This document shows positions 1 through 64,000 of a stretch of DNA of 64,000 bases, one piece after another (position 1 is the stretch's first letter; each line of letters starts with the position of its first letter). The position numbers and the translations under genes are program-made. The DNA is from Bilabrum cf. latius. Taxonomy: Eukaryota. The DNA is taken from NCBI GenBank assembly GCA_965178125.1, contig OZ237744.1, positions 310,001 through 374,000 on the forward strand, written 5' to 3'. The notes beneath the pieces are model-generated. The model had not been told where the DNA came from. It ran no database searches and worked only from the letters and a program-made list of their open reading frames with translations.

Positions 1-3
1 GCC

Positions 4-1401
4 ATGAACTTGTGCGACATCTTAACAGATAGCCTATGTTCTCTCCGGCAAAGCGGCCGCGGTCTATGGTACCCATCCTCCGTTCCTATAGTAGAGCATG
101 TTACTGAAGGCATAATTCGGAAGCATATGAGCGAGAGCATCCCGCTCTTGTGCAAAGGTTCAGCAAAGTCTTGGCCAATAGCACAGGACACGCGAGGCTT
201 GGAGGATATCAAGAAGTGCATGGGATAGAATGAAGTTGTCGTTGATGTTACACCAAACGGCCATGGGGACGCTCCTGTGACAGTGGGGGGCAAAAAGGGG
301 CGCACGATGTTTGTAAAACCGCACGAACTGAAACTGCCGTTTTCGGAGGCTATTGAAGTGATCTAGGCTCAATCGATGGTACGTACAAGTGACGAAACCG
401 TTCAACTTTCTGTAGCGCGGGGGCTGGCGGATTGCTTGCCTTCTGAATGGTGGCGAAAGACTTCTTCGTCAGGACAGCCCCACGCAAGGCTATACTACAG
501 CCGCCAGAACGACTGCCTGCGACAGGAGTGCAAGCCAATCTCATCAATCCTCTCTAGATTTCAGACATTAGCTTGGAGCAAACCGCTCGGCGAGCCCGAC
601 GCCGTCAATTTTTGGATGGGGACACACCACTGCACGACAACCTGCCATAAAGACTACTACGACAATCTCTTTGCAGTGTTGCACGGCCGCAAACACTTTC
701 TTCTTTTTCCTCCCACGGATGTTGCGTTCCTGTACGAGACACCGCTTCCGACTGGCAGGTACGTCCCACGAGCGGGCTCAGAGGCGGCCGCTGGAGCAGC
801 TGGAGCTCTGCACTGGGGCGTTGAAGTCGAGAGGCAACCTCATCACGAAGAGAGACATGATGAGACTGCAGCGGGGGCCGGCGGCGATGCATGCGGCAGC
901 AGGCAAGCCAAGGGATCGGTCGAGGATTCCAGCTTAGAGGAGTCGCCCAGCGCCGCACTGGCAGGAGGGGCAGCCAAAGCCAACGGTGGGACTGCGGCTG
1001 GAGTGACGCCCGCGTGCAGGCCAGAGGCAGAAGACGCCGAAGGCAAGCACGGCGATGACGAGACTGACGAGGACGGTCTGGCATCTGCAGTGCACACGCC
1101 CTGGATCGCTGTGAACCCCGACGCACCGGACTTCGCCAAGCACCCGCTGTCCTCGCTGGCTTCACCCGTCGCAGTTACCGTAGAGCCGGGCGACATCCTG
1201 TTCCTTCCTGCATGTTGGTATCACAGGGTCAAGCAGGAAGGCTTCTGCGTATGTGTCAATGCGTGGTACGACATGAAGTTCGGTGCGGCTCACGCCGCGC
1301 TCGAAGCTGCAAGCGGCTTGGGGAAGGTGGCGCAAAGCCTTGCGGTCGATGACTAGAAGAAGATTGCTGATGCTGTGCTTGCAATGGATGACGATGATTG
1401 A
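4..1401 (+). CDS. JMJD7: JmjC-domain hydroxylase, JMJD7-like (~465 aa with TAG=Gln)
   Basis: ORFs 4..228 and 376..1356 are in one frame joined by TAG at 226 and 364. Motifs: VVVDVTPNGHGDA, VNFWMG, CHKDYYDNL (HxD), LFLPACWYHRV, VNAWYDM. Reads through TAG 1354 to TGA 1399-1401. The start may lie upstream of the window. Confidence 0.85.
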
Positions 1402-1492: not shown

Positions 1493-1539
1493 TGCGGCCC
1501 CACGCGAGAAACGCATCATGTGCGGCCCCACGCGAGAAA
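1493..1539. repeat. 19-nt direct repeat flanking a stop codon
   Basis: tgcggccccacgcgagaaa at 1493-1511 and 1521-1539, on either side of the minus-strand TGA at 1516-1518. Confidence 0.85.
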
Positions 1540-4500
1540 TGCAGACACGCAGATCGACCCCGCCGCCAGCAGTACAGCCACCCCGATGGACAGACCGGCC
1601 TCGCCCAGCCTCTCCTCCCAGTATAGAGACGGGTTCGTCCCGCGCACAAGCAGATCGCCCCGGCTCTAGGTCCCACTGGGGGTGGCACTCATGCAGAACG
1701 CATGCCCGCAGGTCCCCACCACGCATAGCAACGCCCACCCCACACAGACCAACACGGCCACATCCTCCCATAGCCGCTGCCACCAGGACATGGCGTTCAC
1801 GAACGAATGCAGTGCCCTGCCCCTGCGGCTCATCTCTTCTTCGCCTGTAGCCCCAAGACTCGAGCTGGACAACAAGTGCCCCATTCTGGGGTCCGTGGCA
1901 TCGGACACACCGCTCCACATGAGTGTCTATGCATCCCATTGCAGCGCCTGCAGTGCCCTTAGCACTACTGCTGTGGCAGGATACATGCCAATCGTGCTCG
2001 CGACGGATCGGGCGGCTCGTCGCACTACGTGAATAGGGTCGCTCTCTTGATCGCTGCTGTTCTATGCCGAGTCCAGGAAGTTTGACGTGGCAGTGAGCTA
2101 TGCAAGGCCGTTGTACTGGTCAGTGGTCATCTACCGCGTGCCTGCGCTGGCAAGAGAAGCTAGCCTTGCGTCAGGCTCACATTGCTTGGCCTGATCTAGC
2201 GGGCCGTCATCTCGAGACTCCGTGTACCTGCCAAAATCTCGTAGACGCCACGGTGCATCATCCATATCGTGCGCGGCTACTCTTGCCGAATCGGAGAGCC
2301 TGCGACCGCCCACCGATGCACCCTGGACCGAATGCCCCCCGGTTGAGTGGACTAGGCTGCCTTGATCAAAGCCCTCAATGCTCTTAGATCGAACCCTGTT
2401 CATTGAACTCGTGAATACCTTGCAGCTACCTTGCTGTCTCAAGCCTAACTATTGCCCCATCCGTCCATCGTGCGTGCCAGCAGTTGCACTGCATGGGCAC
2501 ACTCTGAACCAGCACCGCGCCCAACCAGTGTCAGCCTACCAATCTTCCTTGTCTGTCCCCAGGCGAAGCACGTCCCCATGACTTTGAACACACGAGCAGC
2601 ACGGCGACTGCACCAGCAGCAACACTCTCACTAAAAGCACGGTACTCATCGCGGCGAAGACCCCGGCAGCCGGCAGGTGCATGCGGCCAGCTGCCAGAGC
2701 AACTCCAAGCAGCCAGTATGCCCCAGCACGATAGAGCACGAACACAGCGAACGTGCCTCCCATAGCCCTGCTGGAGCCTGCGGTGTGCGGCACAGCAAGA
2801 GAACACTGGGAACAGCAAGTACCTTTAATTGACTGCTAGTTCCGCAGTGTTCCTTCCCTAAGGGCACTAGAGGTGTGTTCGCTGGCTTGCTCGGCACGAA
2901 GATGTTGGTCAGCATCAGGGATGGCCCACCTGTCCGGGTCGGTCCAATGGATTTGCTCTTCTCCAGATTGAACTTCTTTTCTGGCAGGAGCCGAGGGCTT
3001 GGATCCTGCTGCGACTTCTTTGTCGCTGCGGTCAGTTCGACTTTCTCCACCAGTGACCGCTTGCAGATCAGATGGCATGTTCACCAACGGCTGCACGGCC
3101 CGTGGAGCTGCGGCGACGGACCTGGCAGCTGCAACAGCACCCACGCCTGCAGCAACATCACTCACGGTGGATGGTCCATCTAAAACGTTTCCAGCCTCGC
3201 TCTAGCTGTGTGCACCCACGGCAGGCTGAACCTGCGGTGCCTCCCGACTGTCCTGCTCAGTGGAGGGTGCATCGCTGCTGCTAGCAACCCTCGAAGTCGT
3301 GGTATTCCAGCTGGGCTCGCTGGTCCTGGATCGCAGCAAGTTCTCCTGCGCCCAGCCGTGGCCGCCCTGCTGCACCATGGCATGACCTTGACCTCGCAAC
3401 CCAATCGGGTTGTGTTCGAGCGCCTCGGAGCGCCACCCCCGCCTTGAAATAACGCCGCTAGCTGGCACAGTAGCATCATCGCGCTCGCCGTACGAGGCGG
3501 TCCCATCGAGCGAGTGCACGCCAAGGCCATCGCCGTGCACATCGTCGCGATGCTGAACGGGAGATGGCTCTGTCGGTTGAGCCAAATGTGTGCTACTTGG
3601 TCCGCTCTGGCCAGAGGTGTACGCATCGTCGCCTTGGATCGAGGGCACTACGATCACATCGCTGGCTCTCATGGACATTGCGCCAGATCCTACCGACCCA
3701 GCTGCCAGTGACGCTAGACTCGTAGCCGATGCTGGCCTATCGTGCGACCCTTGGCCCCTTTCTGACCCGGCCTTGGAGGCAGTTCCGTGTCGAGAGGCTG
3801 ATGACTGCGGCACTGAATTGTTGACCCGAGCGGACGACCCACTTGTCCTGCTAGTGTCAAGATGGTCGGAATTGAAGTGAGCACTAACGCCTCCAGAGTC
3901 CCGGTCCCGGCTTGATGTCGTTGTCTTGTCAGCCTGAGATTGTGACTCGTCGATTTTATTTGAGCCTATGTGCAATCGAGTGCCAGCTGGCCGGCAAAAC
4001 ACTGGCCGTGGCGTGGCCTCAATGCTTCGGTCTATGGACAGACCGACAGGGATCGGTGCACGTCCCCAGCGCGCTGATGGCAAGCCGGCCAGCGGCAAGG
4101 TAACTGAAGTTTCCGCCAGCGCATTTCCATGCCACCGATAATCCTCTGCTGATTGACCGTAATCGGCAAGCAGCCCCTCGCGCAACGCCACGTCCGCGCT
4201 TGATCGGCCTTCCTTGCGAGCTGCACGAGCTGCACAGATGCTGCCAGTCCCGACCATGCATCCCACCAGCAGCAGCCACTGCACGATAGCTACCGGGCCC
4301 CACAAAGCTTGTCCAAGTCCATCATTACACTCGTCAGCGTTTCTTCCCATTCCTCCGTGGAGGCACGGCAGCTCAACGGATACATCTACAGACATGGGCA
4401 CAGTGGCCGGGAGCCACGCACCACCCTCCGCCCCGGGCCTCTTGCCCCGCAGGATCGCACCGAGCTGCTGAGCGAGCGCACCGGCAGATCTGCCCCTCTA

Positions 4501-7500
4501 CGCTTTTCGCCACCCATCGGACCCAAACAGGACCACGGGAATCGGTTCCAGCCTTACTGTCACATAGATCTCCATCGGAAGGTATGGAGGTTCTTGTGGT
4601 GGGTTCGGAGATATCGGTCGGGCTGTACCCTGGGACGGCTGAACTCGTGTCCTTGGTATCGGAGAACGCACCGATAGCACCTCCACGTTGATGACCCGGG
4701 TGTACAGCGACGACTCATTGCCCCCGATGATCTTCCTACGGCTCATGGACGGCTCCAGACCTAGGGCCCATGCCTCCCAGTCCGGCCCCAGTGCATCTTC
4801 TGCCCCTTCCTGCCTTGCTTTCAGCGACGGGTCCCACTCACCCAGCAGGTCCATCACGTCTGCTTGCAACTCGGCTTGCAGCCGATCGACCTACTGCACT
4901 GTGGGGGAAGGGTAGCCTAGCCCGGGACCATTCGGCTGCCCAGCAACCGTGGTGTAGGCTGGTGGCCACTGGTTTCGATCGAACAGAATCATGAAGCTGA
5001 CAGTAGCGGCAGCGGTCGGCTCTCGTTGCGCCCAGAGTGAATCGCTCCACGGAAGCAACCCGCCCTTGTCGCGCATGCACCGAACGTTCGGTGGGTTGGC
5101 TGTCGGGCTCAGCTCACGGGTCGCTTTCTTCTAGTACGTCGGCGGATGCCAACTAAACCCCTTCCCCTTCTTCCAGCTCCCGAACGAGCCAACAAGCCCC
5201 GGTCCCAGCTGGCCAGATCTAGGCACCACGCTGTCGCTCTGCACCAGCGACGGATGCCCGCCCCAAGTGGATAGCCAGGGCCGTGCAAGCGATGCAACCG
5301 CCTCCCACCCCTTTGCACTCTTGCCACCTTCCAGCCCAAGATCCACAGCCTCCCACCCCTTTGCACTCTGGCCACCTTCCAACCCAAGATCCACAGCGAT
5401 CCTGCCGGGATCGTCGCACTCCATCCTGCACACCGGTCGCATGAAGAAAGCACCGATCGGCGATGTCTCACCGCACGTCCATCGGCCTCGGGTGATGCCG
5501 GGCAGCGATCTTGGTGGCGCATCAGCAGTCACTCGCCATAGCGCCGCGCCCCTGTACCTGGCCTTGGGCCCCTGCAGTGGTATCGGATTCAGAAGCGGTG
5601 GCCAGGGCTTGCCTGCCTGTGGGGCAGGAGCGGGCACTGGCGGCCTCGTGCCAGCATTTGATGGCAGAATGTCCATTGGGCCCACAGTAGCGTTGGGCCA
5701 CGCTCCTCTGGTACCCTCAGATACGCTCACTGACAGCATGCCGCCTATGCTCGCGGCGCGAGTGCTCGAGGCTGCGGGGTAATCACTGTGCACCACGTCT
5801 GTGACAAATTGGTCTCCAGAATCGGAGACACTGGCTGATTCTTTGGCGAGCTGCACCTCCATCGTAAGGGCGCATCCGATCTTTGGCATCTGCGCCCCGA
5901 GGGGCAGGGCCTGCAGCACGTCCCTGGTCCACCTCCGAAGCAATCGGTTCCTCTCAGCTCGAGTACTAGTTGAGTTGATGGGGAGATTGGGAGAACATGT
6001 CCTCGCCTCCACGCAGGATGGGTCGTCTAGCACCACAACCTGCCCGAAGATCCCGTGGCTCCTCTCTTCAAATCCAGTCGTCAGGTTCAACCCGCGGCAA
6101 TAAAGATATCCGGAGGACGCATCTACCTACGTATCATACAAAGAGCTCCCTTTCTGGCCTGGTTCTATAGCCATGGGGGGCAAAGACCAGATTGCTTGCA
6201 CAACGTGGTGGGTGTTGACGTGCCACGGGTACTGATCGCGACTGTTCCTTGCAGCTGACGGGGGGATTGTATCCAGCTGTGCCACGGTGCCAGGGGGGTA
6301 CACGACTGTTAGCACCTGGTGCCATCGATTGTACAAGCCAGCCCCCCCAGAACTGAACGGATACTCCTTGGTGCCCCCAGGGCTGGGAATCGCCATGGTA
6401 GTGTGGACCAGCTGGGACCTCACTACGCTCTGATAGTCGTTCTCGAACGAGCCCAGTGATGCTAGTTCCGGTCTTCCAGGGTCTACACGGCACTCGTTTC
6501 GCGATGCATTTGGCGGTGCCTGCCACGCTGTTGCCTGCCTGCACGTGTCGTTGGGCGCGATGGGCACGTCCATCGGGGTGCATGCCTCGCTCAAGACCTG
6601 CCTGGGGCAGAGGACGACGGGCAAATTCATCGTGGCAGTTGCACGGAATACCTTTGGAACGTTATCAGAGTACAGTGCCTGAGCTCCCATTCCGACCGAG
6701 TCGCCGCTCCACGAATAGTGGACCTTTCTCTTGCCTCCAACTGGCAGGGGCATCCAGGGACGAGGGTCCTCCCCGTACCTCGCATCTCCCCAGTAACGGC
6801 CGTGGGATCCGGTCCACAGCGACGCTACGATAGAGTCGCTATAGCTGCCCGGCTGGTCGTACACGAGCACCCACTCCTCCGTGGTCCACGGCTCTGTAGA
6901 TCTGGTCGGCGGCATGAGAGCGCTGATCCTGGGTGGCAGGCCGGCGCCGTAGGGCGGTTCCTGCGGAGTCAGGGCGGCGGGAGTGAAACCAACCGTAGTC
7001 GATGTCACCGAAGGGGTCACTCGCTGCGGCCAGGGGCCCGAGTCTCTCGGGACTGCCTCGGTGCCGGTGGCAGCTGCAGCGGACTGGCTGGGTGCGAGCT
7101 CGGAAGGAGGCAGTCCACCTGGCCCGACTGGCCAACGCCAGTGAGCCGTGGACTCGGGATAGTGACGCAGTTGTGTTGGCTGGAAAGGCATGTCAACCAG
7201 AGTGCAGCCTGCCTGGTCTGCTCCCTCCGGCGATGCCCTAAGCTCGGCCTGGTCTTTGCTGCTGAGCACACGTAGCGTCCGGCTCGCCTTCATGCCGATA
7301 CCCAGGGTGGACGGCCCCGGAGTAGCAACCCAAGTGGCTGCATCGTTGTTGAAATGGGCCTAAAAAAACAGTTTTCATCTTGCGGGGCATCAAAGGAGGG
7401 GGGTAATGAGTTGCATGGCCTCTCAAGGGCTCAGCGGAATACACCAACTCACCGTTGCATATCGTGGTATTGAGACTCGCTTCGGTTCCGAATGGCAGAA

Positions 7501-8110: not shown

Positions 8111-11100
8111 TCACCTGCCGTCACTCGACCCACCCTTCGCCTCCCCTGCAGTTTTCTCCGCCAATGCTCTCTCCACCGCCCGGAGCGCCTTTAGCCTCCG
8201 GGCCTGCCCTGCCGCTGCCCTGAACTCCACAAGGCACAGCCGCCGCGGGGACCACCGCATCCGAATCATCAGCCAACCAGCCAGGCCAACCTGGTACCTG
8301 CCACCTCCACTGTATGCCACGGCTTTGTGGTACAGCGCGATCTGCACTGCCAGGCGTCTCCTGGAGAGGCCCTTCTGCACCTTGAGCCCGTCATCAAAGC
8401 CGCGATAGCGTCGGCGGGCCACGCTTAAAGGAACACCCTACACCATGCCCTCTGCATCCGTGGCGACAAGCGAATGGTACTGTATCCTATTCACGTAAAT
8501 ATCACTCAGCCACGGGTTGTTGACCGAGCTCTTTGCGAGGGAGCCAGCAGCTTGCTTGGCCGGACCGCCGGCAGGACCGAAGGAACCCAAATCATCACTG
8601 GCTGGGATCGTCGCGTGGCGAGCGGCATCCCGTCTGCACCACGCCTACAGGTCGAAATCACTCCGTGAAACGATAGACGCTGCCAGGCGGCACCGCGACG
8701 ACATTGCTTGGGAATGATCACGGCCCGCAACGGCCACGTCTCCATGCCCCGAGACCAAGCCAGCCATGCCTGCTCTGCGTGCTAAAAGGAGACCACTGCG
8801 CTCCCCGGGCGGTCTTGAAGCAACGCCGTCCCCAAATTGACCCAGTGCTCTCGCCGACATTGTCATTTCATGCATTGTGATCACAGAGAGCGCAACGCCG
8901 TCGGGGGCCATCGAGACAGGAGTGAAACCCCTCGCGTCGCGTGAGACACACGCGGTGTATCCGCCATTCTGAAGCAGAAGCACCACGCTCGGAGCAAGCG
9001 CTCCGTCGTACCCAGGCCGCGTGCTCGCTTCCACCCCAGCAGGTGACGCAAACAGCAGATGCACTGGGTTTTGCTGCGACACATCGCACACCTGCCTTTC
9101 CATTGGGGGGCTGCCGCGCTTGATGCCAGCTAGGAGCACCTCGAGCAGCAGGGGGTGACCCGCGTGTCCTGACCAGCACAGCACCATCAGAGGGTTCCAA
9201 CCCCCAGCCATGATCGCGTCGGTGCGAGCTCCCGCGGAAATCAGAGTGCTTAGTATCTAAGCGTGTGCTCGGACGCGGTGGTGCGATAGCTGGCTGCTCA
9301 CACCTAACACCTTGACCCTATGAGCGGCGTGCTTCACCGCTCGACGGGCAGCCAAAATCATTGCGGGTGTCCTCTTGCCGTCTTCCCGAACAGGAACAAC
9401 GCCCGCAAAGCTATCACTCCCTGTAGCATCCCCTGAAGCTGTTTGATCGTGCAGGATCTCCCGCAGCTGATCGATACTACTCCTCGCAGCTACGCTGAGG
9501 TGACCCATCCACACGGGACCAGCCACTGATGAAGCCAACCCAGAGCCTGCACCAGACGCACCTGAAGCGCCAGATGCACTCCTGGACCTGCTGGATGCTT
9601 CTGTTTCGCTACTACTCGTTCCATGATTGTCGTTTAACCCTGCGCTGGCTCCTGCTGAGGACGGATCGGCAGGCACAGCTGCAGCACCAGCAGCACCGGG
9701 AGGACCTGACCCCCACGTGCCACCCTCACCCTCGGTCCCTCCACCTGCCCCCGACGATGCCTAGGCCCGGGCCTCTGCTGATATTTCTCTTGCAGCCTTG
9801 ATGACTTCGAGATGAGACAGCCCGCCAGCGGCAAAGACCTTCTCCCGAAGCTCTAGCTCCTTCGCCCTAAGCTCGGACCGGGCACCAGCGGCGGCTTGCG
9901 TCCCTGCGGCATCGACTTGGTCCCCGTCCAGACCCGCAGTTGCCTACCAGGCATCAGCAGCTTCCGTCAAGCCGATGCCATCCATGTACAGAGCCTCTAC
10001 CTATTTCTGCGGGATGCAGGCGAAGAGACCTGCCTGCCTGCTGGCGCGTGCGGCCAGGTGCAGACAGCTCTCACCGCACAGCACGTCTGGATCCTCTGCA
10101 GCAGCGTCAGCACCGAGCAAGACTAGCATAGAAACGATGTGATTGTTGCAATGCAGTGCAGCCAGACCGAGAGCGGTAGTGCCCTCAGGCGCAAGCATCC
10201 TGCAAGACATGCCAATCGTAGTTGGCGGCGACTGCCAATCCAAACGCGTCATGGCCGCCCGTGCGCAGTTCTCATCAAAATACCACCGATCGTCCTCGTC
10301 GACATCTGGGTAAACGTAGTCGTCTTGCATCACTTCGTCGTCGATATGCCTAGCTACATAGCTTCCAGCTCCTTGCTGCCCGAGCGTGATCCCAACATCA
10401 TGACTGACGTGACCCACCAGAGCGCGACACACTTGCTAGTACACGTGCCCCTTCACTGGCACTCTGAGAGGAGGATCTGCCAGCGTGAGACTATTCACTC
10501 TATTCTCATAAGAGGCAAGGTAGACGAAATCATCAGAGCCTGGAATGGGTGTAGCAAGGCCACCCCAGGTTCCGGCATCTTCCTTCGCTCGAGCATCGCT
10601 ACCATACCCGGAGGGGCCAGCCAACTCCATCTTCTCGATCTCCTCCATCTGTGCCTTGATGTCAGCACCCTCTAAGGCCCGCTCAATCGACTGCACCATT
10701 GCTAGCAAGTCAGGGCCGCGGGAACTTGCCCTGCTGCGTGACAGTACCAGCGCTAGCCGAGCTGGTGTCTGCGCGCCCGGAGCGTCGCGCCCCCAGGACA
10801 CCTCTTCGAAGGCGGGGTTTGCGGGCTCCACCTCCTCGTTGAGAAACCTGCGGAAGGCCCGCACCCTCGAATCTAAATCTGCGCCGGCCTCTGCCGCAGC
10901 TGCTCGCTTCGATACATCCTCGACCGCGTCTGCAAAACAGAGGCCAAGGCGGGATGCAGGCACGCCATCATCGCCAGTGCCGTGACCTGACCCCGCCGCC
11001 CCTGCCACTGATGGGTCCGAGGCGGATGATGGGTCCGAGGCGGAGGGAGCCACTCCATCGCTGCCGGCTGTGCCGCTGGAGCCCTCATCCACTGCCACCA

Positions 11101-11842: not shown

Positions 11843-12109
11843 GCTGCCACAGGTCGACGCTGTCCAGCTAATAACCACCAAGCTTGCTGACAACCGTCTC
11901 TAGGATTCAACCTTGGGCAAAGTATACTAAAATGCAGCTAATCACTCTGCGATGCAAGGACACATTGTGTTGCGCGGATGTCTTTTCGCGCAGGAACGAG
12001 AGAACCCCACCGGCGGAATGCCGAACGTTCGATCCGAACTGTCCGACCCGTTCGAACGGCTCCAAAATAGCCGCTCTTGGTGGATTTCTTCTACTGCAGT
12101 TACGACAAG
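11843..12109. promoter_or_regulatory. Bidirectional promoter, ankyrin protein / SIAE
   Basis: 267 bp between divergent ATGs. Contains TGCCGAACGTTCGA at 12019-12032 and the palindrome CCGTTCGAACGG at 12048-12059. Confidence 0.5.
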
Positions 12110-21000: not shown

Positions 21001-21044
21001 TGGTACACTAACGGAAGAGCTCTCCCAGCCGAATCTGAGCTCAT
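15036..21044 (-). CDS. Guanylate-binding protein/atlastin-family GTPase with long coiled coil and PH domain (~2000 aa)
   Basis: G1 AGRYRSGKS, SHTKGI, G3 DSEG, FVWVLRDFSL, FPLVRPVEDE. E/K/A/R-rich heptads from ~19300 to 16900. PLC-type PH-like segment ~16840-16510 (LRQGALLTKY...SFDFECADTDEAVTWVFGIR). One frame, fragments joined by TAG, ends at TGA 15036. Confidence 0.85.
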
Positions 21045-50000: not shown

Positions 50001-53000
50001 AGAAGCGGGTATCGAGCTGCTCACGAGGATTGGGGCAGCCGGAAATTCAAGCCTCTCATCACTTGGCGAGAAGGTCGCGAAGGCAGCAGAAGAGGTCCGC
50101 ATTAGCCACGGCATTATCCCGGAGGGAGGCGCAGTGGCAGCAGCCATGGCGACAGTTCCAAGTGCTGTGGATACATTGCTCCCGCCGGGGCTTTTGCTGA
50201 GCGGACCGCGCACCGATGGCTCAATTGCATGCCCGCCAGAGTATGGAGTCGTGGGTCCAGGAGCAAGTCTTGGATTTTGCGGCATCTCCTTGAATCACCA
50301 TTCATACATGGCACTCATGCTGTCTGGAACAGGCAATGGAGACTCTGTTGAGTACAATGATGATTTGGCGTCAGATGGTGTCGCTGCGCAACAGACTTCT
50401 CAAGTTGCACCCGATGCCTTGCCAAGCCCAACCGTTGTGCCTATGCTGGTATTTCGAGTCATTGACACTGGCGCAGGACTCGCACGAGATCCAGCTGGCA
50501 GCAGCAAGAACGAGCTATTCTCTGCATTTGTGACGAGAGAGGTATCTGCCCCTGAAAATTCTCAAGATCAAGCATGGATTCGCAGCGATAATGAACAGAT
50601 TGGAATCGGAAGCGAAGCGCGGGATGACAGTGCTGTCCCATTTGCAGTTGGGTCTACTTCAGGTGTCTCAAACGAGCGGTCTACCCGATTCAATCCGACA
50701 GCACCGGATGGAAGCGCTAGTTCCGTAGCCAAGCAGAAGGGTTCTGGGCTCGGGCTAGCCATGGCTGAAGAGCTGACCAAGCAGATGGGAGGGACCATCG
50801 GGCTTGGTGCTGAGTAGAGGAAGAAGAGGACCGTGCTGGAGGTGTCGCTGCCGCTGCGGCCGCCCTGGCGCGTGGTTCGCAGGATGGAGACAGGGGCCGC
50901 GAGCAAACTGCGCAAGGGCACCTGCTTGATGTGGGAGCAGCGGCTGCGGCAAGAGATGCAGGCTATTGGTCGTGCATGTGAGCTGTTGTCACAGGGAAAG
51001 ACTGATGCTGCCCTAGCCGAGTGCTCGTGCGCTGCAATTGCAGGGAGAGAAGCCTTTGGTCCATATTCAGCCATTGGCGTGGAGCAGCGGCAGCCTACTA
51101 CTCGTAGGAGTGTTTCATCGGATGAAGGCATTCTTGCAGCTAGCACAATGCCAGTCGAGCACACCACTGCAAACAGAAGGTCTTGCCGAAGTCCGACAGC
51201 AAACTAGGGTATCGGCGAGGGCCTACATCGTCGCCTTGGCGACAGCACCGCTTCGAAGAATGCCACGTCATCGTTCTCCCTTCGGGTTGGCTCGATTGAG
51301 CCGAGCTCTAGGACGGGAAATTGTGCGCCAGGCATCACCAATGATGCAACCCATGCTCCTGATCGAGAGCTTGAACGACGGCCGGGCGAGACACCGTTCG
51401 ATGACCCAGTCAACCGCCCAGCTTGCGTGTCAAGCAATGCAAACCACGACAGGAGTCTCCAAAGCAGCGAAGGCAAAAGATACTCAAGGAGGGACACCCA
51501 GGTGCTCAGGGCGCTTGAGGAAGTGCGCTCGTCCACACGAGCCGAATGCACAGCAGGGGCTGAGGCATGCCTCGTGAATACTCTCAAGAGTGTCTCCGCC
51601 CTGGACTAGAGCAGGCTTTCGGCAATTTTGCTGCACATGCGGTCATTTTCGGGTCAGTTTGATGCTGCGTCTCGTCGTAGTGAAGCTGGCAATGCCGATG
51701 AGTCTGTTTAGACCTCTGACCACCAGCGACGGGACATGTCGACGGAAGGCAACCTTCAATCACTTACGACTCCGTCGAGGCTGCTCTACAGCCAAGGACT
51801 AAGTCATAGGTCTATTGGCGACTTGTGTGATGACACGCATGCCTGGGGAGATGTTCCTACCGAGCCAGTCGTAGTACCCTCTTCCGCACGAGCGAGAGCC
51901 AGGCCAGCAGCCTCCGCGAAGGTTCAGCACTCGCATCCCAATTCTGTTGTAAGTTGCTCAGATAAGGGTGGTATAGGCAACACAACTGACCAAGGTTGCA
52001 TGCAGTCGCACGATGGCTGCATCGTCGAAGAGGCAGCAAGGGAGCTCGTGCTGCCGTATACCCGAGGCCACAGGGACAGTCGCACCGCAGCGCAAGGGGC
52101 GTACAGTCGCACCGCAGCGCAAGGGGCGTCAATCTTGCCTAGAATTGCCGGCAATGCGGGAGTGTCGTGTGTTGAGGCCGACGTTACCGCCCTCGGTGCA
52201 ACGGCTCAAGTACTGCGACGTGCTTTTGAACGCGGGATGCACAGTGCTGAGGTGGGCGACTCTTTGGCCTGCAGCAACACATCCGGACCCGCAGATTTCC
52301 AGGCGCGGGATCCTCGATCCAGGTCAATGCCGGGAAGAGATGCCTCTCTGTCGGCGGGTGGATAGGAGGGGTGTCGTTCATTGGATTCTGCATTGCCTTT
52401 AGCAGGGGATTCAACCAGCGGTCCTCTCTCTGGCCTCCACGTTCTCGTGGTGGACGACGAGCGAGCCCTCAGGCGCATGGCCTCGCGCATGTTGACTAGA
52501 CTAGGCGCCACATGCGAGGAGCTAGAGGACGGAGAAGAGTGCGAGGCCGTGCTAAAGAGTAAGGGCCAGCTTCCGGGATCATATGCGGCTGGAACGAGAG
52601 CACTAGGTTGCGACCACGGCGCTTCCGAGGCCGGTCCTCAATTTGATGTTATCCTTTCGGACATTGTGATGGTGCACTCGAGAGGCACAGACGTCTGCAA
52701 GCACCTCCTTGAGCTCGGATGCAGGGTGCCCATCTTCGCCATGACCGCCAACCACGATGCTTGGAACCTGCCAGAGTACAGAGCCGCCGGCTTCTACGGC
52801 ATTCTGCCCAAGCCATACTCCCAGAGTCAGCTACTGCAGAAGCTCGCAGATCTCCGAGGCAGTGGTACCATTGAAGCAGTCAGAGCAGAGCAGCAGAGGT
52901 GGGCTAGAAGCGGATCTGTGGCTGTGCAAACGGTTGAGGATCTATGGGCAAACAGGGACAGGCAACTGTACCCTGGCAGCGGCGAGACGGCCCGACATCG

Positions 53001-53292
53001 CAGTAAGAGCGGCCCATCGTACAGCAGGGGGTCGCCTCGAAGGGCTATTTCGGGCGTGTCTGGGCAGCAGCCAATCAAAGATCTGTTGGCTGGCGAACGA
53101 GCTGGTGGTGAGTCTGGCCCACTCGACAGAGGGCCCAGGCCAACGCGTCTGGAGCTGTCCACAATGTAGCCTGCATTCGCAACTCAACGGAGTGAATCAA
53201 TTCGGACCTCAACATCTGCACCCCCGGATGCACGATCTCGAAAAGATCGTCGCGTCGTGAAACGAAGGGAAAAGAGGAAGCAGGAGACGTGA
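47003..53292 (+). CDS. Hybrid histidine kinase: TM-CHASE-TM-HisKA-HATPase-receiver (~2060 aa, 5' end uncertain)
   Basis: CHASE-like NVIGLDL...AVTRPLQL...GVLVTAPVY. H-box VVHEQRNPL, LVNDLLDLSRL, N-box QILANGLTNAAKF (joined by intron 49378-49481), G1 VIDTGAG, G2 GSGLGLA. Receiver VLVVDD...ILSDIVM...PIFAMTAN...LPKP. Ends at TGA 53290. The frame is open from 46754 and the first ATG is 47003. Confidence 0.88.
52076..52129. repeat. 27-nt perfect tandem duplication in histidine kinase linker
   Basis: acagtcgcaccgcagcgcaaggggcgt x2 (SRTAAQGA x2). Confidence 0.9.
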
Positions 53293-53411: not shown

Positions 53412-55625
53412 TCAATTGATGTCCAGCAATGACCCAGCAAACATGCCATAGTCACCCCGCTAGACCTGTGTGATGGATCGGCGCCTGCACCTCCAGCACC
53501 ACTGGGACACCTGCAACACGCCTCCCACCACGTGCTGCATCCTCTCGGCGCAGCGCCGGTTGCAGTGCACACAAGGCACCGCGCTGATCTCTCTCCTCCT
53601 CTCATATTCCAGTCTTCGGTGCACGTGCATGCGTGCATATGTCCCCTTCCAATCGGTGTCCTTGGGTGTCCTCCGGCAGTCCCGGGGCATCTTTGCGACC
53701 AGCTGACCCGCGGACGCGCTGAGCAGCTGCTCGGTGCTCGGCTTGAATCGATCCGATCCTACGATCCTCGGAGAGGCACCCGCCCTCTGCGGTCCAGACT
53801 GGGCATGACCCGAACCCACTCCCGCACCCATACCTGCACCACGAGGTGCCTCCCCTCCTGCACACACGCTTGGTTCTGTGCTACTTCCAACCGTATGTTC
53901 AATAGACTTCGATTGATCCGAAGTCTTCGACCTTTCCGTCGACTGGATTGAGCCCTCCAGCACAAATGGTCGGGACCGGATCAGCGAGGTTGGTGCAGCT
54001 GGAGAGACTGCCTGGCGCCCACTGGCAGATCCAGCGCTCTACTGAACGCCTGTTCTGGCAACAGATGAAGTCTATCTTGAAGAGCCTATCGCCGGTGGCT
54101 GATAAGCTCCTGAGATGACTGGCACAACTGGTTCCAACCCTGCCTTGTCTGCGACTGCCGGAGATTTGGACGGCGACAATGATACTGATGACGACGATGA
54201 TGATGATGACGTCCACTATGTACTTGGCACTACAACGGATGCTCTCGTGCTTTGGTCGAGTGCTTGCAACTCGCCCTTGCCCGCATCCCAAGCAGTCCTT
54301 GCTCCTGGAAGCGGCACGCGCTGAGCTGCCCGAGACGCCTCGGGGAGGCTTCCTGAAGAGGAGCGCACCTGGGACTGACTGGAAACAGCAAGGGGATTCG
54401 CTGCGATCTTTGGCCCGGTATCGTCTGCGCTGTCGTCGCCACCGTGCAATGCACCCAGACCCGCCTCTGGATCCACTGCACTCGTGAAGCACGAAGAGCT
54501 CCAACCCTGGAAATCGCCACTTTCACTCTCCTTTTCCATCCCGTTCTTTGTCGCATCAGCCTCATCGTCGCCATTAATACCGCCGTATGAAAACGAAGAC
54601 GAGTTCCTCCAGCCCTCGCACGGCTCGGGGTAGCTGCCCCTGAAGAAGTCCCTTGCCACCATGCGCACCCACACCGGGTTGGAACTCGTGGGGCCGCACA
54701 GCGCCCTGCATGACCCAGCCACGGAGCACGCGTCCCTGTAGGAGAGCGAGAGCAGCAGGCGGTGCAGGAGAGTGGGCCTGCAGACAAGCTTCGACAGCTG
54801 GCTGCCTCGCTGGAGATTCGGTGCCTGCCGCGCGGCAACTGCTGGTCCTTGACGGCTACTAGTATCGGAAGGAACGCTGCCAGCTGGCCGATTCTGGTCT
54901 CCTCCAGCAGTCGCTTTGAAATCTGCTCCAGGCTGCCCCTTCTCTGCAGCCAATCCCAGTGGCAGTGGCAGTGGCAGTGGCGGTAAATGCTGCGTAGACT
55001 GGGCCACCGGAACAACGCCGAGGGCGCTGTGGCTCGGCTCCGTGGCAGCTTGACGAGTGCCCAACACGGGTACATCTAAAGGTTTTGGTATAGTCTCCTC
55101 CGATACTACAATGGTTAGGTCGTCCGTGCTTGCATTTGCTCGGGCACTCGACATGTCGCGGCCAGTGCGGCTGCCTATGCTTGGCAGCAAGGCAGACGTG
55201 TCGATGTCGTCTTCTAAGTCACGCAAAAATGCAGTCATGCGATCATCCAGTGATGCATTCGCGATAGCTGCAGGTAGGACAGCGCGGAGAACTAGGCCGG
55301 CGATCAGAATGGTCTTGGTCCGTAGCGAGAAAGCTGCTTGGACTGCCGCATGCGACATCGCCCTACGAGTCGCACCAGAGTTCTCTCCTCTATCACCAAG
55401 CCGAGACTCCATGACATTGTAAATTTCAGTTGCAATACACTCTTCCCTATTGCTATGTGCGAACCTTTCAGCCATGTCGGAACCACCAGACGTAGACTTG
55501 CACTTGTCCTTAAATCGTTCGATACCAGTTGCAAGAGCCTGCCTCAAGACTCGAACGACCCGAGAACGATGCTAGCGAGTACTATCATTGCCCTCTTCTG
55601 GTCTAGCACGCTTTGAACCGATCAT
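53412..55625 (-). CDS. F-box-like protein with TFIIS-central-like N-terminus and C-terminal CxxC...CxxC ribbon (~737 aa)
   Basis: One frame from ATG 55625 to TGA 53412 with only TAG interruptions. F-box-like PTLLHRLLLSLSYRDACSVAGSCRAL...VW, later DWKGTY, then CVHC-x19-CWRC. Confidence 0.55.
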
Positions 55626-55975
55626 GCTGGTCACAAGGCGTGGAAGCCGAAATTGCATCTCTTGGCTGGCGCGGCAGTGCCCTGCATTTTTCTTGTGCCG
55701 CGGCGGTGCACGGTTGCAGGTCACACTGTGGCACTCCGATTGAGTGTCACATCACAGTGGGGGCCCGTTGTCAATGCCGATAATTCAACTTAACGTAGGA
55801 AGTTACTGGAATCAATCAAGATCGGTTCAATTTCCACCCGAATGTCTTGTGCAGAGGCACTGGAGCACCCAGCAGGTGCGACAACAAGCACGCTCTGCGC
55901 CTGCTGGACTACAATGAGCGTCAAGCATTGGACTCCCAACCCAATTCAGCCCAAAGCCATCGAGTGCAAGCACGC

Positions 55976-57168: not shown

Positions 57169-58899
57169 TCACCCTCGCTTCTCCTCCACCGCCGATCCCG
57201 ACGCAAACGGCAGCGTCACCCCCCGCTCTAGCGCGCCCGCCACCCGCAGCCGGTCCGTCCCGCCCCTCCGCAGCAGCTCCAGCCTGGCCTACTCCACCAT
57301 CTCCGCCTGTCTCGTCCTGTCGGCCCGCATGATGGACGACTCCACAGGGGCCAGCAGCCTCCTAGACCCGGAGTACAGCGCCATCGTGCCAGCTGCAATC
57401 AGGGCGGGGAAAGCCACCATACCAAGGAACAAGGCAGGCGCTCGCTTCCGGGCCAGGTACGCCCCGCCGGAGAACAGCACCGCACTCGTCACAGGGATCG
57501 CCACGTCAGACAGCAGCGAATCGGACGGGGGCCGCACGAGCTCTTTGGCCCTGGTCACGGGCACTCGCCCGAAGCGAACACAGACGCCTGCGAGCAGGTG
57601 CTCGTCCACGAGAGCGAGCACTCTGCCTGTCCCTTGCGCCTGCAGGCGAAACGCCACGATTTCTTCCCTCTCCCTGGCATCCACGAGCTGCGCGGCGGTT
57701 TCCCAGGGGCACTTGCTTCCTCCCGTGGCTCGCATCGCAGAGCGGGCGTGCTCCAAGGAGGGACCCAGCGACCTGGTCTGCCCCAGCCACGCCTCGTCCA
57801 CGATCCTGGGCTTCTCGATGGCGTCAGCTGCTCGTTGGAAGAAGGCCTCCACGTCACTGGCACTGTCCCGCGCGGCAAGTGCTCGCATGGCGTCTGTACC
57901 GATCCGGAGGGAAACTGGTTTGCGGTCGTTAGGCTGCGTGGTGCCTGCACCGGTTGGGAGGCTCTCGCCTTCGACTGCGTCCTCGTCCTCGTCCTCGTTG
58001 CCATTGTCAGCACTGGACACTTTTGCCTTCAGTTCTTCCTGTGCTCTTTTCGTGCGGTCTGTGGCCACTGCGCCCACCTTCCGGATGACGGTTGCAACCT
58101 GGGACCGATCAGCGGTTGCAACCGCGGCTGCGGCGCGGAGCACCTGCTTCCAGCCGCCCAGGATCTCCTTGGCGCCGAGCAGCGTGTCTACGAGGTTCAC
58201 GAACGTTCGCGTTCGGATCCTGCCGATGGCTTCGTGCCTCTCGAGGGGAAGCACCCTGCCAGACACGGGGGGCTCCACGGTCGTCGTGTAGGCCACTTTC
58301 AGGGCGTCCTGGAGGTCTTGAGCGAGCAGCTCCGGCGGGAGCACTTCTTCTTCCAGCTGATTCGATTTCTTAATGTCTTCTCTGACGCGTCGCAGGCGGG
58401 GAGTCTCGAGGGCGATGCCACCGGATGGCATGCCGGTCTGCACCGGGTCCCTAGATAGCATCGCAATCCCGCGCTGCCACTGCCCGAATAAGACCGTATC
58501 AGCCAGCACCGGCAAATTTGCTGCCGACGGTTCCACCTCATCCCGAACAAAATCTTCGGGTAGCACTGAAAAATAGGTTCGACGGTCAGGAAACCTGTGC
58601 CTCAACCGCCGTCGTGAGGACTGCAGGCCTACCGTGCCTGGCCGCTCATCTCTGATAATCTCAGCTACGAGCTCCCTTGCAGCAATACTTTTAATTGTAC
58701 CATCGGTATACTGAACCTTAGATGCATCACAAAGCCCAACCACTTTGAATGAAGCATGCTCAGATGTCCACTGTGCTGAGGCAATATCCAAGTGAGCGAC
58801 TGTCGGCTCTGCACGCGGCGCATGGCTATTATCTGCCCTCTATGCGTCACTAGGAGCTTCACCACTAACGTCGTTCTGCTTCGAAGCGCTGGATCCCAT
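57169..58899 (-). CDS. Divergent TraB/TRABD-like membrane protein with N-terminal MGSSAS (~576 aa)
   Basis: ATG 58899 to TGA 57169 through TAG 58840 and 57289. IIRDERPGTVGLQ and LVDAREREEIVAFRL...RVLALVDEHLLAGV resemble TraB-family blocks. C-terminal hydrophobic hairpin. Confidence 0.5.
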
Positions 58900-59026
58900 A
58901 GCTAGACGATTTGTTGTGCATTTTGCATCGCTGATTTTGGCGGTTCCAACCAGCCATTCCGCGTGTAGTGCAACCTTCGAGATACTGCGCGCAGAACTGT
59001 TCGACGCGCGTAATTACTGTAACGCA

Positions 59027-62000
59027 ATGTCGACTATGGGAGAATCTCCGCAGGGTCCCAGTATGTTGTCCCAGGGATCCGTTGATAGCGATGCTTTGAC
59101 AACACCTCAGAAGGGCAAGCCAGCAGGACTTCGAATTGGGATACCAGGGCCGTCTATTGAAGCATTCTTAACGTTCGAGCAAATGAGGTAAGAAAAATTG
59201 CTGTATTACTTGGTGCGGCAACGTTGAACTATGGCTATCGACAAACGAAGAGCACGCGTTGCGCGAGCCGTTCCGTCCGAGACGCGCAGGGGCGTGCAGA
59301 CTCCAGTCAATGTGGTTTCAAGGCGCACAACAGTGATGCACAGAGCCATCGAGGGGATACGAGATGTGATCAACGCTTCAGCTCGCAAGAAACAGAGAGT
59401 TTCCCGGCCCAAGAAGCGAAGCAAAGCAAAGTCCAGCGGCAGGACCTCCAGGGCCTCGGCAGCTGGCTCAGGAGCAGGCCAGGCCCTAGGCTCCCCGGCG
59501 GGCAGATCCTCCCGCACGAGCTCCAGGTCACGAGGCGAGCACGACAGGCTGTTCGAGCCTTCCCTCCCCATCGTTTCATCTGGGACCCCCTCCAGCATCA
59601 TGGGCCGAGCACCGCCGTCACCGGCCATCTCAGAGCAGTCTCCGGTGACGCCGGCAGTGGCAGCGGCAGGGAACGCATACGGAATGAACAGTCCTAGTTT
59701 ATCAGGCGCGAGCGTGGCGGGCTGCATGAACTCGCAGGAAATTATTTTGGGCCCCGCCACGCTCCCCCCTGCCCTCCTTCCAACTGTCTCCGATCGAGGC
59801 ATGAAAATGCCTCACGGGCAGCTGCCGAGCAGCCGCTTGACAAGTGCGCTGCCTTCAAAGAGCGAGAGCTACGCAGGCGACGTGACTGCGCTTCAGGTGT
59901 CGGACGGTGCCAATGCTCCTTCGGCGGTGGCAGGTGTACAGGCAACCGCGCTGCCACGCACCGCCCTGTCTTCTTTGAGCAAGGCACAAGGCGGTCCAAC
60001 CCAGGGCAACGAATCTCTCAATGCAGCGGGTGCATCCCAGGCTGAGCACTCAGCAGCTGATGGTGGCATGGCTCGCACGCAGAGCGCCCCGAGCTCCGTG
60101 CGGGGACTGCAAGGCGAAGCAGCTGGCAGCGGCAGCAGCGCGAGCGCGAGCTCAGTCGTAAAGAAGGAGACGTCGCCATCATCATCGTCCTCATCATCGG
60201 CATCAGCAGCACAAGATCTTTCGAAATCAGGCACGGGCAGTGCAACCCCCTACAAGATCACCATGCGATGTGCCACGCTGCCACGAGAGGCCGTCCACAG
60301 CGCCTTGGACGCATTGCATGAAGCAGACAGCAAGCTGGCGGGTCTCGCACTGGATCGGATCAACGAGGCCTGGTCGACGATGCTGAGGGATATCGGCCCA
60401 GGGCGGGCTGCGGAGGCGCTGCAGGCCGTGGACGAGCACTCGTACAGTGCGCTGATGAAGGCGACGGCTCTGAAACACGACGTGGCGGCGGCAACTAGCG
60501 TGCTTGCGCTCTGCTGCCTCGGTTGCACAGTGAGCACAAAAGACCTGTCTGGATACGGTCCCGCTCACTGGGCCGCTGTGTGTGCGGGCCCTCGCACGTT
60601 GGAAGTGCTCTGTGCCTTCGGAGCGGATCTCACGGGCGGGTGCCAGGTGGGCGAGACTGCGCTGCACCGTGCCTGTCGTATGGGCCGAGGCGATTCAGCC
60701 GTTCGGCTTATGCAGCTGGGATGCCCGCTGCAAGCCATCAATCACGAGTTCCATACACCCCTTGATGTCGCTGGCTACACTGACGATGGGCAGCTGAATC
60801 AGGCTACCCGCGCGGGCGTTCGCGCAGTCGTGCTGCAGGCCGAGCCCAGCGCGCGACTGGCGGTGTTCTCCCACCCCGACTGCCTAGAGCACAAGACCAG
60901 GGAGAACCACCAAGAGGCGCCAGAGCGCCTCACGGCTATCCTCAAGCGCATGCGCGAGGGCAGGCAGCTGCAGCAGCACGAGTACACGTTCACCTCGTCT
61001 TTCCCCCATGCCAGCGAGGAGGAGCTCTGCAGGGTACACTCGAGCAGGTACGTTGCTTTCATGCAGCACATGGACACTGCAGTGAGCTAGAGCTAGCAGC
61101 CCGTGCCTTTCACTCCCATGGTGCAGAGGGGCATGGGAAAGGTGCCTCTGGAAGACCTCAAGGAGGGCGTCCACAGCGATACCTGGTTCTCGCCGGGATC
61201 GCTCAAGGCGGCAACTCGGGCCGCCGGGGCCGTGTGTGCTGCCGTAGACGCAGTAGCCCAAGGCCACTGCCGCAACGCCATGTGTCTGGTTCGTCCCCCC
61301 GGTCACCACGCTGGCGTGCAGGGGCTGCTACGGGGCTCCAAGAAGGAAAGTTCCTGCGGGTTCTGCATCTTCAATTCGGTTATGATAGGCGCTGCGCACG
61401 CTCTGCGTCACCTAGACCGTGGCAGGAGCTACGGTGGAATGGCACACGACTGGTCTGGTGCCTCCGCTGGTATGTTTCAGCAGCATAGATACGCTAGCAG
61501 CTCGCTGGCAGTGCAACCGTCTCCTTCTATAGCTCCCATCAATCGCGTAGCAATTGTTGACCTGGATGTTCACCACGGAAACGGCACAGAGGAGTGCGTG
61601 CGGTCGTGGCAGGCCAAGCATCCGCTATCAACACACATCTTCTTCTTTTCCATGCATTTGTACGACGTGCAGCTGACTGCCATCCCGGTGAGCGATGACG
61701 AGGAGGAAGAAGAAGAAGATTCCCCAGCCGATGGTAGACAGAGCACCAAGTCAGAGCCTGCTGCACGCATCACAAGGTCAAGGTCCAGACAGTAGGACAC
61801 CCCATCTGCTGGAACTGAGACGAATGCAAAGTCACAAGCAGACAGCAATTCTGGTGACTCGAGCATTGCTGGTGCTGCAGTGAAGTAGCCTGTCGCACGA
61901 ACCGAAGCTGCCGCGCCCACGGACCCCGGCACCGGAACATCCGTCGCGTTGCTGAAGAGGATCTCGAAGGGGGCAGGAGCCAGAGCCACGAGAGGCAGGG

Positions 62001-64000
62001 GGCCGGGCCGACCTAGCTCGGTGCCTGTCGGGCGCAAGGCGACTCGGGCAGCTCGCAAACGCAAGCATGTAGAGCTGGAGCTGCTGGAGGACAGCGATGG
62101 CAGCTCGGTCGCACCTATTGATGCTGAAGGCAGGGAAGGCTCGTCGCGGAACGATTCCACGAACCCGTCCTCGGCTGCGATGGCTGCTGCTGCCGCTGGG
62201 GCTGGCATGGAGACGGTGCCACCAAGCCCAGTTGCGATGCGGGGGTCGAACGGTGGGGAGACTCGAGGCAGGTCGAGAGGCGACGAGCCGAGCCCCAGTG
62301 CAGGCATTGCGTTTCGTTCAGATGGGTCCGGTGCAGCGAGAGTGCGGCGGCCGACGGCCTCTCCGCCAGCCCACCCAACGCAGGTACCTCTGGACTCTGC
62401 GGGTTCTCCGATCGGGCATGAGGTAGGAGCCGTCGCTGGCGTCTCGCACGGGTCTGCTGGTGAAGCAAGCGGCAGCAGCGGGGGCGCAGCAGCTGGTTAG
62501 GTTAGATCAGCCTTTGCTAGCGGTGGCTCCGGCGAGTACAGTTCGGACGGCGGGGCTGGTGACGACGCCCATGCTCACAAGAAAAGGCGGGTGGGCATGG
62601 GCGCTGCTGCGACAGGTTCGGTTGCTTCGATGGATGGCATCCCTTCCAAGATGGTTCTGCGGAGGTTCTAGTCCGCTCCAGGCAGTACGACGCTGGGGAT
62701 GCCTGACTGGCAACGCAGCGTTTCAGACCAGGCAGATGGCCCCTCGGTTGCAGCTGGGGGCAGCAGCAACCCCCCTGTAGCTGGCGTGGCACCTCACAGG
62801 CAGCGCAGCCGACGCTCCATCGCGTTTGCTGACGAAAAAGAGGCAAGTAGATTCATCGGCACGGCAGATGACAAGCCACAGCACCCTTCGGGCAGTGCAG
62901 GGACGATTCCCTCCTCCTAGCCAGCCTAGCAGGCTGCTAGCTCTTCCATGGAGGGGGGCTCTGGTTCTGCCGCCATGGATGGGAGCTCTGCCCGCGGCAT
63001 CTTGAAGAATCGGCTGGAGCAATCGCCACGACTGCCCCCCGTCACGAGCTCGGCATTTTTCGGTGCGAGCAGCGAGCAGGACAGCGAGAGCAAGCTCGAC
63101 GCCTTCCTGCGCACCGGTGCGGTGGCTGAAACAAAGACTCCCTCTGGGCCTGGTGCTGTGGACGGCCATGGGTTCAGTAACAGGGTGCCTCCAAGGACTT
63201 CGATGGCTGGCAGCAGAGTCCCTCAGCATACGGGTGAGTCGGGCACGGCAGGAGCTGCTGCTCCGCGCTTGGCGCACACGGTTGGCAGCAGGGTCGGCGG
63301 TGTCGACAGGTAGCTTGCCGGCTCGGGCACGGAGTCGAGCGGTAGAGTAGCAAGGTCACTGCTGGGCAGCGGCAGCGGGTAGATGGGGCTGGATCTGTCG
63401 TCGAACGTGCTTGGCCGTGGCTCCGGGCCCCTGCTGTACCCTGGGGAGGCTGCAGCTACCGGGGGGAGCGGGCGAGTCTCCAGGCGGGCATCTGCGGATT
63501 CAGGCAGCATGAACGTAGTCACCCCGTCGTCTACGAGTCATTTGAAGCAATCTTCTAGGAAGGGATGGCTGGTGGGCGGCCCGCTTACGACAGTAGAGGC
63601 AGGCGATCCGTTCGGGCCGGACAAGCAGGTCGAGTACTCGTTCTACCCCGGGAGCGGGGACTGCGATTGCCCCGGTGCGAACGTCGTGAACGTGCCTGTG
63701 CCGCCCCTATGGCGCGCAACGAAGACGAAACCGAAGCGTCCCACTGCTTCAATCCCTGCAAAGGTAGGGCGACTTGCTGCCAGACAGGCCATCGAGGACC
63801 GACTGATCCCTGCACTCCGCGCGTTTGGTCCCGATCTCATCCTCATTTCCGCGGGCTTTGATGGGGGTTCACACGATATCGGCAACTCGAGGCCGGACGG
63901 CAAGGCTACCCCGGGCATGGATCTGAAACCCGAGGATTTCGCCCACATCACCAGCCGAATCCTGGATGTGTCTCGGTCGTGCTGCCCTGGTCGGGTCGTA
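59027..64000 (+). CDS. Ankyrin-repeat class II-type histone deacetylase (3' truncated by window)
   Basis: Intron 59188-59289. Ankyrin repeats GYGPAHWAA, GETALHRAC, HTPLDVA. HDAC motifs HQEAPERL, RVHS, VRPPGHHAG, GFCIFN, DLDVHHGNGT, FYPGSG, PDLILISAGFD. One frame with only TAG interruptions. Confidence 0.9.

Follow-up and report, generated by a model that had tools for sequence, protein, structure and literature searches.

A probable reading of UAG as glutamine in nuclear DNA of a GC-rich protist, likely a stramenopile

Changes of the nuclear genetic code are rare, and the reassignment of UAG with UAA still used as a stop is rarer, being recorded in the accounts cited here from one fornicate, one rhizarian, one green alga and a few ciliates (PMC11687900, PMC5304391). 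Panek et al. (2017) have described UAG alone as glutamine (Gln) in Iotanema spirale (PMC5304391), and the same meaning is reported for Protocruzia tuzeti and for two phyllopharyngean ciliate lineages (PMC11687900). UAG alone is given as leucine (Leu) in the rhizarian exLh (PMC5304391) and as serine (Ser) in the green alga Scotinosphaera (PMC11687900). The reading of both UAA and UAG (UAR) as Gln, NCBI table 6, is listed for many ciliates, hexamitid diplomonads, ulvophyte algae, oxymonads and an aphelid (PMC11687900). Phages, crAss-like and others, are described as reading TAG as Gln under the name 'genetic code 15' (PMC9523058). The present work concerns the meaning of TAG in a 64-kb stretch of DNA deposited as Bilabrum cf. 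latius (contig OZ237744.1 of assembly GCA_965178125.1, positions 310,001 to 374,000), the whole of which is called the window below. The window very probably comes from the nuclear genome of a GC-rich protist that is probably a stramenopile and reads UAG as Gln, with UGA (mainly) and UAA as the sole terminators, as in NCBI table 15. All results refer to these 64 kb of one genome.

Ciliate macronuclear DNA is usually AT-rich, and in phyllopharyngeans it is gene-sized. The window differs from it in holding 16 gene models on one GC-rich 64-kb stretch with GT..AG introns of 101–167 nucleotides. Spliceosomal introns, a mitochondrial beta-oxidation enzyme, a GC content of 58% and 16 gene models in 64 kb fit neither the ciliates with UAG as Gln nor the anaerobic Iotanema. 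What is shared with Protocruzia and the phyllopharyngeans is a UAG that has become Gln decoupled from UAA, as those lineages are described in PMC11687900. With Iotanema the window shares UAG alone as Gln, UAA and UGA kept as stops, and the way in which the code was recognised, namely from UAG at conserved Gln positions, whereas the main terminator given for Iotanema is UAA (PMC5304391) and, of the 14 long frames that finish within the window, 12 do so with TGA. Iotanema is an anaerobic metamonad, whereas the window carries a mitochondrial-type acyl-CoA dehydrogenase (ACAD), an LYR protein and stramenopile-like genes. The UAR codes are alike in that a stop codon is read as Gln, presumably through a mutated tRNA-Gln, and unlike in that the window has no in-frame TAA in 17,230 codons and ends a frame of 4552 amino acids in TAA. 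As described, exLh and Scotinosphaera have also reassigned UAG alone and kept UAA and UGA as stops, but to Leu and Ser, whereas TAG in the window falls on invariant Gln columns. The phage code 15 has the same codon with the same meaning (PMC9523058), but spliceosomal introns and gene families of eukaryotes set the window apart from phage genomes.

Reading TAG as a sense codon opens the window to long coding frames. The number of stop-to-stop frames of at least 500 amino acids is 2 under the standard stops and 11 with TAG as sense, and the longest frame grows from 620 to 4552 amino acids. With TAA as sense the values stay at 2 frames and 620 amino acids, and with TGA as sense there are 5 such frames, the longest of 693 amino acids. 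Twelve long frames with a total of 17,230 codons contain 130 in-frame TAG (0.75%) and no TAA or TGA, the two zeros holding by construction since the frames are delimited by TAA and TGA. In the two other frames of the same twelve, TAG occurs 194 and 154 times, which is not far from its in-frame number, TAA 55 and 62 times and TGA 266 and 427 times. This off-frame stop rate of 1.9–2.8% per codon makes open frames of 2000–4500 codons impossible by chance. TAG makes up about 17% of the Gln-type codons of the twelve frames (130 of 767), in which CAA and CAG stand at 202:435. Pfam matches run across TAG codons in Cupin_8 and, over two of them, in GBP (E values in the list below), and protein domains are intact on either side of TAGs.

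The sense reading had been proposed in a first-pass annotation made from the sequence alone, and these counts, the Pfam domains that cross TAG and the spliced contigs described below bear it out. All five positions quoted there (12248, 13658, 38503, 38061 and 48656) hold an in-frame TAG. It had counted 15 of 17 gene models with TAG; the 15 agrees with the present count, and the total is 16 here. Its argument that TAG adjoins Gln codons was dropped, as Gln within three residues of TAG is enriched 1.26-fold with p = 0.10, which is not significant. A correlation of context profiles around TAG likewise indicated no residue. The gene models of the window, of which only the chorismate-lyase-like gene is without TAG, are as follows; four long frames have no Pfam family.

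1..1401, + strand: JmjC/Cupin_8 (JMJD7-like) gene with its 5' end beyond the window; Pfam Cupin_8, E = 3.4e-56; 3 in-frame TAG; TGA end
1516..7374, - strand: frame of 1952 amino acids, no Pfam family; 14 in-frame TAG
8111..11941, - strand: ankyrin-repeat protein frame; 11 in-frame TAG
12119..14904, + strand: sialate O-acetylesterase-like (SASA) gene of several exons, exon model incomplete; Pfam SASA at 12855-13148; matches to SIAE in PDB over two exons
15036..21047, - strand: guanylate-binding-protein-like gene (GBP, long coiled coil, PH domain), 2003 amino acids; Pfam GBP, E = 3.4e-58; 19 in-frame TAG
21513..35171, + strand: giant frame of 4552 amino acids, no Pfam family; 37 in-frame TAG; TAA end
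35304..36734, - strand: USB1/HVSL-like gene; Pfam HVSL, E = 1.3e-12; 1 in-frame TAG
36684..37439, + strand: chorismate pyruvate-lyase (Rv2949c-like) gene; Pfam, E = 1.3e-54; 0 TAG
37869..38306, - strand: LYR-motif protein gene; Pfam Complex1_LYR, E = 1.9e-14; 2 in-frame TAG (38061, 38094)
38383..40043, + strand: medium-chain acyl-CoA dehydrogenase (ACAD), 4 exons; splice joints in runs X5, X7 and X8 (see below); spliced frame open; TGA end
40279..44379, + strand: PP2C phosphatase gene with long inserts; 11 in-frame TAG
45318..46472, - strand: TEX47/BLUF-like frame; TEX47, E = 1.3e-6; 4 in-frame TAG
46754..53292, + strand: hybrid histidine kinase (CHASE, HisKA, HATPase_c and receiver by Pfam), one intron; splice joint in run X5; 17 in-frame TAG
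53412..55751, - strand: frame of 779 amino acids, no Pfam family; 5 in-frame TAG
57169..59013, - strand: frame of 614 amino acids, no Pfam family; 2 in-frame TAG
59228..64000, + strand: ankyrin and class-II-type histone deacetylase (HDAC) gene with its 3' end beyond the window; Pfam Hist_deacetyl, E = 8.2e-52; matches to HDAC6 in PDB; 10 in-frame TAG

Deep homologues bear on the residue that stands at TAG. An alignment of ACAD was made with 103 of 120 listed homologues, those of 300–480 amino acids, and the TAG at 38503..38505 (+) faces Gln in all 90 homologues aligned there, the other 13 of the 103 being gapped at this N-terminal position. SIAE was aligned with 79 bacterial homologues from 80 loci, one short open reading frame being left out. 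The TAG at 12248..12250 (+), in the motif VLQ, and that at 13658..13660 (+), in the motif R-x-A-Q, each stand opposite Gln in all 79 bacterial homologues and in all 4 solved SIAE chains of PDB. These are the three sites at which the first-pass annotation had placed TAG on family-conserved Gln, and the alignments confirm each of them. Columns with at least 90% Gln number 9 of 696 in the ACAD and SIAE alignments; the window has TAG at three of them, a standard Gln codon at five (four of these, in ACAD, verified as CAG) and GAG at one. By arithmetic from these counts, the chance of three out of five TAG sites falling on such columns is about 1e-5. Some TAGs did not lend themselves to comparison. 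Those at 61088 and 61094 in the HDAC gene lie inside a segment missing from solved HDACs and are uninformative, and USB1 had no match in PDB, so that its TAG has no structural comparison. A third TAG in the SIAE exons (context CGSxSNAT) came to lie on a Phe column and was set aside as a forced alignment with non-matching flanks in a Cys-rich insert absent from bacteria. An AhpD match in the PDB search with SIAE (E = 0.99) was disregarded as chance.

A close relative provides a second comparison. Its orthologues are present as protein fragments, P0124 for GBP, P0241 for the JmjC gene and P0260–P0263 for the giant frame, which are 83–93% identical to the window over 1408 aligned residues (83–91% in the giant-frame fragments). 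For P0124 and P0260–P0263 alike the longest contig has 23,101 bases, in keeping with the window order of GBP next to the giant frame, and the relative appears to keep this gene order. Gln of the relative faces TAG at three sites with conserved flanks: at 1354..1356 (+), 14 codons before the TGA of the JmjC gene, where P0241 has Gln followed by 14 identical residues; at 19521..19523 (-) in GBP, where the flanks in P0124 are identical; and at 25461..25463 (+) in the giant frame, where the flanks in P0260 are identical as well. In the same alignments, the 48 CAG or CAA codons of the window meet Gln in 40 cases and Ser in none, whereas 131 Ser residues face Gln 0 times and 72 Glu residues once. 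Because of these controls, Gln is the sole residue that fits the constrained sites. The three invariant columns and the exchange of TAG with Gln of the relative at conserved flanks are the reason for reading TAG as Gln, and they support the meaning that the first-pass annotation had assigned to it, with TAA and TGA staying stops.

The predicted proteins of the relative end at a TAG of the window in four cases and at a CAG in one. The TAG at 19323..19325 (-) coincides with the end of P0124, which suggests, from the aligned sequences, a stop-type codon in frame in both organisms. The reverse case is the CAG at 26139..26141 (+), which coincides with the end of P0261, so that Gln of the window stands opposite a stop-type codon of the relative. 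Together these ends suggest that the relative shares the code and that TAG and CAG interchange in both directions. A metagenome scan with a conserved stretch of the giant frame and another with P0128 turned up no relative. The ends of three more distant GBP relatives (P0121, P0126 and P0128, 55–59% identical) resemble read-in of introns or truncation and were set aside as uninformative on their code.

The long frames that finish within the window do so in TGA or TAA. Among the 15 longest, TGA closes 12 and TAA 2, and one exits the window. Reading TAA as sense extends the long frames only trivially. If TAA stood to TAG as CAA to CAG (202:435), about 60 in-frame TAA would be expected, and the finding of none means that the code is UAG-only and not UAR. 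TAA is not reassigned, and TAA and TGA remain stops. It is unlikely that TAG is itself also used as a terminator at some gene ends while meaning Gln inside genes. Condylostoma-type codes have such a context-dependent dual stop and sense meaning, and frames delimited by TAA and TGA would read through a true TAG end, the C-termini fixed by homology being those of two genes only (ACAD and JmjC). Both of these genes, however, end in TGA: ACAD at the homologous C-terminus, and the JmjC gene at the same residue as P0241, the next codon of the window being TGA. The Gln-facing TAG of the JmjC gene, 14 codons before its stop and followed by residues shared with the relative, also argues against an end at TAG. 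In two other frames a TAG stands 15 and 23 codons, respectively, ahead of the stop, so that no depletion of TAG is visible near 3' ends.

It is very unlikely that TAG is a sense codon for another residue, whether serine as in Scotinosphaera, glutamate, leucine or tyrosine. Besides the labelling of the sequencing runs discussed below, several findings weigh against Gln and are collected here. In the relative, Ser faces TAG at two of the five sites, whereas the standard Gln codons of the window never faced Ser (0 of 48). One is 19890..19892 (-), Ser in P0124 in a low-complexity, Ser/Ala-rich stretch with diverged flanks, and the other is 25788..25790 (+), Ser in P0261 in a Ser/Ala-rich context with a diverged upstream flank. 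Of the eight TAG sites that can be aligned to deep homologues, five lie on variable columns where Gln is absent or rare. In ACAD, the column of 39335..39337 (+) has V 80, R 6, I 5, L 4, P 4, A 3 and H 1 among 103 homologues, with R in the closest homologue. The GBP columns hold T/S/G/A and D/A/S (119 residues per column from 120 matches), Ser being common among the protist homologues at both, and the Cupin_8 columns hold D/N/Q/H and R/S/A/L/Q (18 sequences). BLOSUM-smoothed log-odds over the eight sites rank Gln first at a modest 6.5 bits, with Glu at 2.2. Glutamate gains from ACAD residue 401 (exon 4, 39617-40043), at which the window has GAG and so Glu in a column that is 97% Gln in 99 homologues, a sign that changes from Gln to Glu do occur at conserved columns.

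Against another residue stand the three columns in which Gln is invariant (90/90, 79/79 and 79/79) and the three sites of the relative with Gln between conserved flanks, together with the rarity with which Ser (0/131) or Glu (1/72) faces Gln elsewhere in those alignments. The empirical log10 likelihood is -6.25 for Gln, -10.46 for Ser and -11.86 for Glu. No TAG lies on a conserved Ser column among the aligned sites, Ser being met only at the two diverged sites of the relative and in the variable columns of GBP. The variable columns are not peculiar to TAG, since 3 of the 8 standard CAG and CAA codons of ACAD likewise stand on columns with Gln in the minority. With TAG read as Gln, the two Ser sites may reflect a one-step change between TAG and TCG at unconstrained positions, as their sequence context suggests.

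Four public sequencing runs with near-identical sequence (X1, X5, X7 and X8, of which X5 and X8 belong to one study and X7 to another) were aligned to positions 35301-55300, runs with small shares of it, among them some labelled protist or algae metagenome, being left aside. X1 has a flat depth of about 95–100 and no splice joints and is DNA-like. X5, X7 and X8 have spliced contigs and very uneven depth, and it is from these two features that they are taken as RNA-type, none of the listed runs being recorded as RNA. The three introns of ACAD (38650-38750, 38856-39022 and 39487-39616, each GT..AG) are skipped by contigs of X5, X7 and X8 and not by X1. Joined at the splice sites seen, the four exons form one open frame for a full-length enzyme with two TAGs and a TGA end. 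One X8 contig (record 24) is spliced over 38371-40110, includes the TAG at 38503 and has 0 differing letters. In the histidine kinase, an intron at 49378-49481 (GT..AG, with a joint in X5) joins the two halves and restores the frame and the N-box. The aligned region contains 43 in-frame TAG codons, none of which is touched by the 34 listed variant places, and 22 of the 43 lie inside listed pieces of the RNA-type runs (X5, X7 and X8) with 0 differences. The first-pass annotation had pointed to mRNA reads with CAG or TGG at these sites as evidence that would speak against a sense TAG; the spliced contigs, from three runs and two studies, retain TAG. Mature mRNA keeps UAG unchanged within its coding parts, and in-frame TAG runs all through genes that are expressed, spliced and conserved.

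That the in-frame TAGs are not translated as such, and belong to pseudogenes, to assembly or sequencing errors, to UAG-to-CAG editing or to tiny introns, is hardly credible, because the DNA-like run and the three RNA-type runs show no difference from the window at any in-frame TAG within their coverage, TAG is retained in spliced contigs and the ACAD frame is open, while 130 TAG stand beside 0 TAA and 0 TGA in the long frames, the frames of the relative break at the same positions and domains are intact around the TAGs. No finding spoke in its favour.

Two further observations were made on these runs. Contigs of X1, and partly of X5, X7 and X8, differ from the window in clusters at 38555-38792, 47855-47956, 48496-48509 and 49162-49189, with no difference at an in-frame TAG; they could stem from another haplotype, from a paralogue or from a relative sharing the samples. 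The near-identical sequence of 35301-55300 also occurs in runs of three studies that bear different organism labels, label A in the DNA-like case and labels B and D in the spliced, RNA-like cases. Either the organism may grow together with other cultures or contaminate them, or the labels may be synonyms.

The reading of UAG as Gln would be expected to need a decoder, such as a tRNA-Gln bearing the anticodon CUA, together with an eRF1 that has lost recognition of UAG while still recognising UAA and UGA, by analogy with the known codes as outlined in PMC5304391. No tRNA was found in the 64-kb window with ARAGORN, an Rfam search of the window matched no family, and eRF1 is not among its genes. 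The TAG codons themselves would have arisen mostly from CAG by a change of C to T.

The lineage of the organism is weakly placed. The best named matches of GBP are oomycetes, at 41–43% identity, and the best named match of the JmjC gene is a brown alga; no protein match pointed to ciliates. A FastTree phylogeny of ACAD, a single gene, groups the query with P0024, and the sister group of this pair is P0012 with P0057 (support 0.925), the source of P0057 being taxid 33652, Cafeteria, a bicosoecid stramenopile. Beyond two further groups follows a sister group of 12 sequences that includes the five from oomycetes (support 0.897). The organism may thus be a stramenopile, perhaps near bicosoecids, which is offered as a lead from a single-gene placement. 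The SAR-like character suggested by the first-pass annotation agrees, weakly, with the oomycete and brown-alga matches of GBP and JmjC and with the position of ACAD near Cafeteria and oomycetes.

A search of openly licensed PMC papers and of bioRxiv, in their main texts, found no report that stramenopiles, labyrinthulomycetes, bicosoecids or Bigyra reassign a nuclear stop codon. For Iotanema and some ciliates UAG alone as Gln is on record, and in stramenopiles it appears to be unreported. An independent origin of the code in this lineage, which the first-pass annotation had suggested, is plausible and depends on the weak placement just described. We lean, without strong conviction, towards the view that two or more species of GC-rich, heterotrophic stramenopiles near bicosoecids (Cafeteria) form a clade that would read UAG as Gln. 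This would be the first reassignment of a nuclear stop codon in Stramenopiles and a further independent origin of the rare code that decouples UAG from UAA, having arisen at 58% GC with UGA as the main stop, and the turnover between TAG and CAG would be ongoing between its species.

Some other features of the window deserve mention. The giant frame (21513-35171) has hydrophobic segments at each end and long acidic low-complexity tracts, and a piece of 1200 amino acids from it is matched at E <= 1e-10 by the close relative only (4 of 5 matches). The chorismate pyruvate-lyase (36684-37439) is of the Rv2949c type, its closest Atlas clusters are cyanobacterial, and it could descend from a plastid or from bacteria although the lineage is presumably heterotrophic. 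The hybrid histidine kinase, of about 2100 amino acids, has a CHASE sensor and an architecture like that of cytokinin receptors, with very long inserts between its catalytic motifs. Antisense to ACAD lies an open frame of 556 amino acids (38690-40360, -) that matches no family. High GC and scarce stops have produced it and it is no gene, and several similar antisense frames occur.

Annotation of this genome with the standard code would shatter nearly every gene, and the database proteins of the organism and its relative are already fragments broken at TAG. As the sequence occurs in runs labelled as several organisms, the odd code could also mislead analyses of those data sets. If the independent origin is true, the organism would be a natural experiment from another lineage at supergroup level, in a genome rich in GC, and would bear on how eRF1 drops UAG but keeps UAA and on base composition as a driver of code change. 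If the clade reading is true, a UAG reassigned at 58% GC with UGA as the main stop would be a case that 'codon capture' scenarios under AT pressure do not predict.

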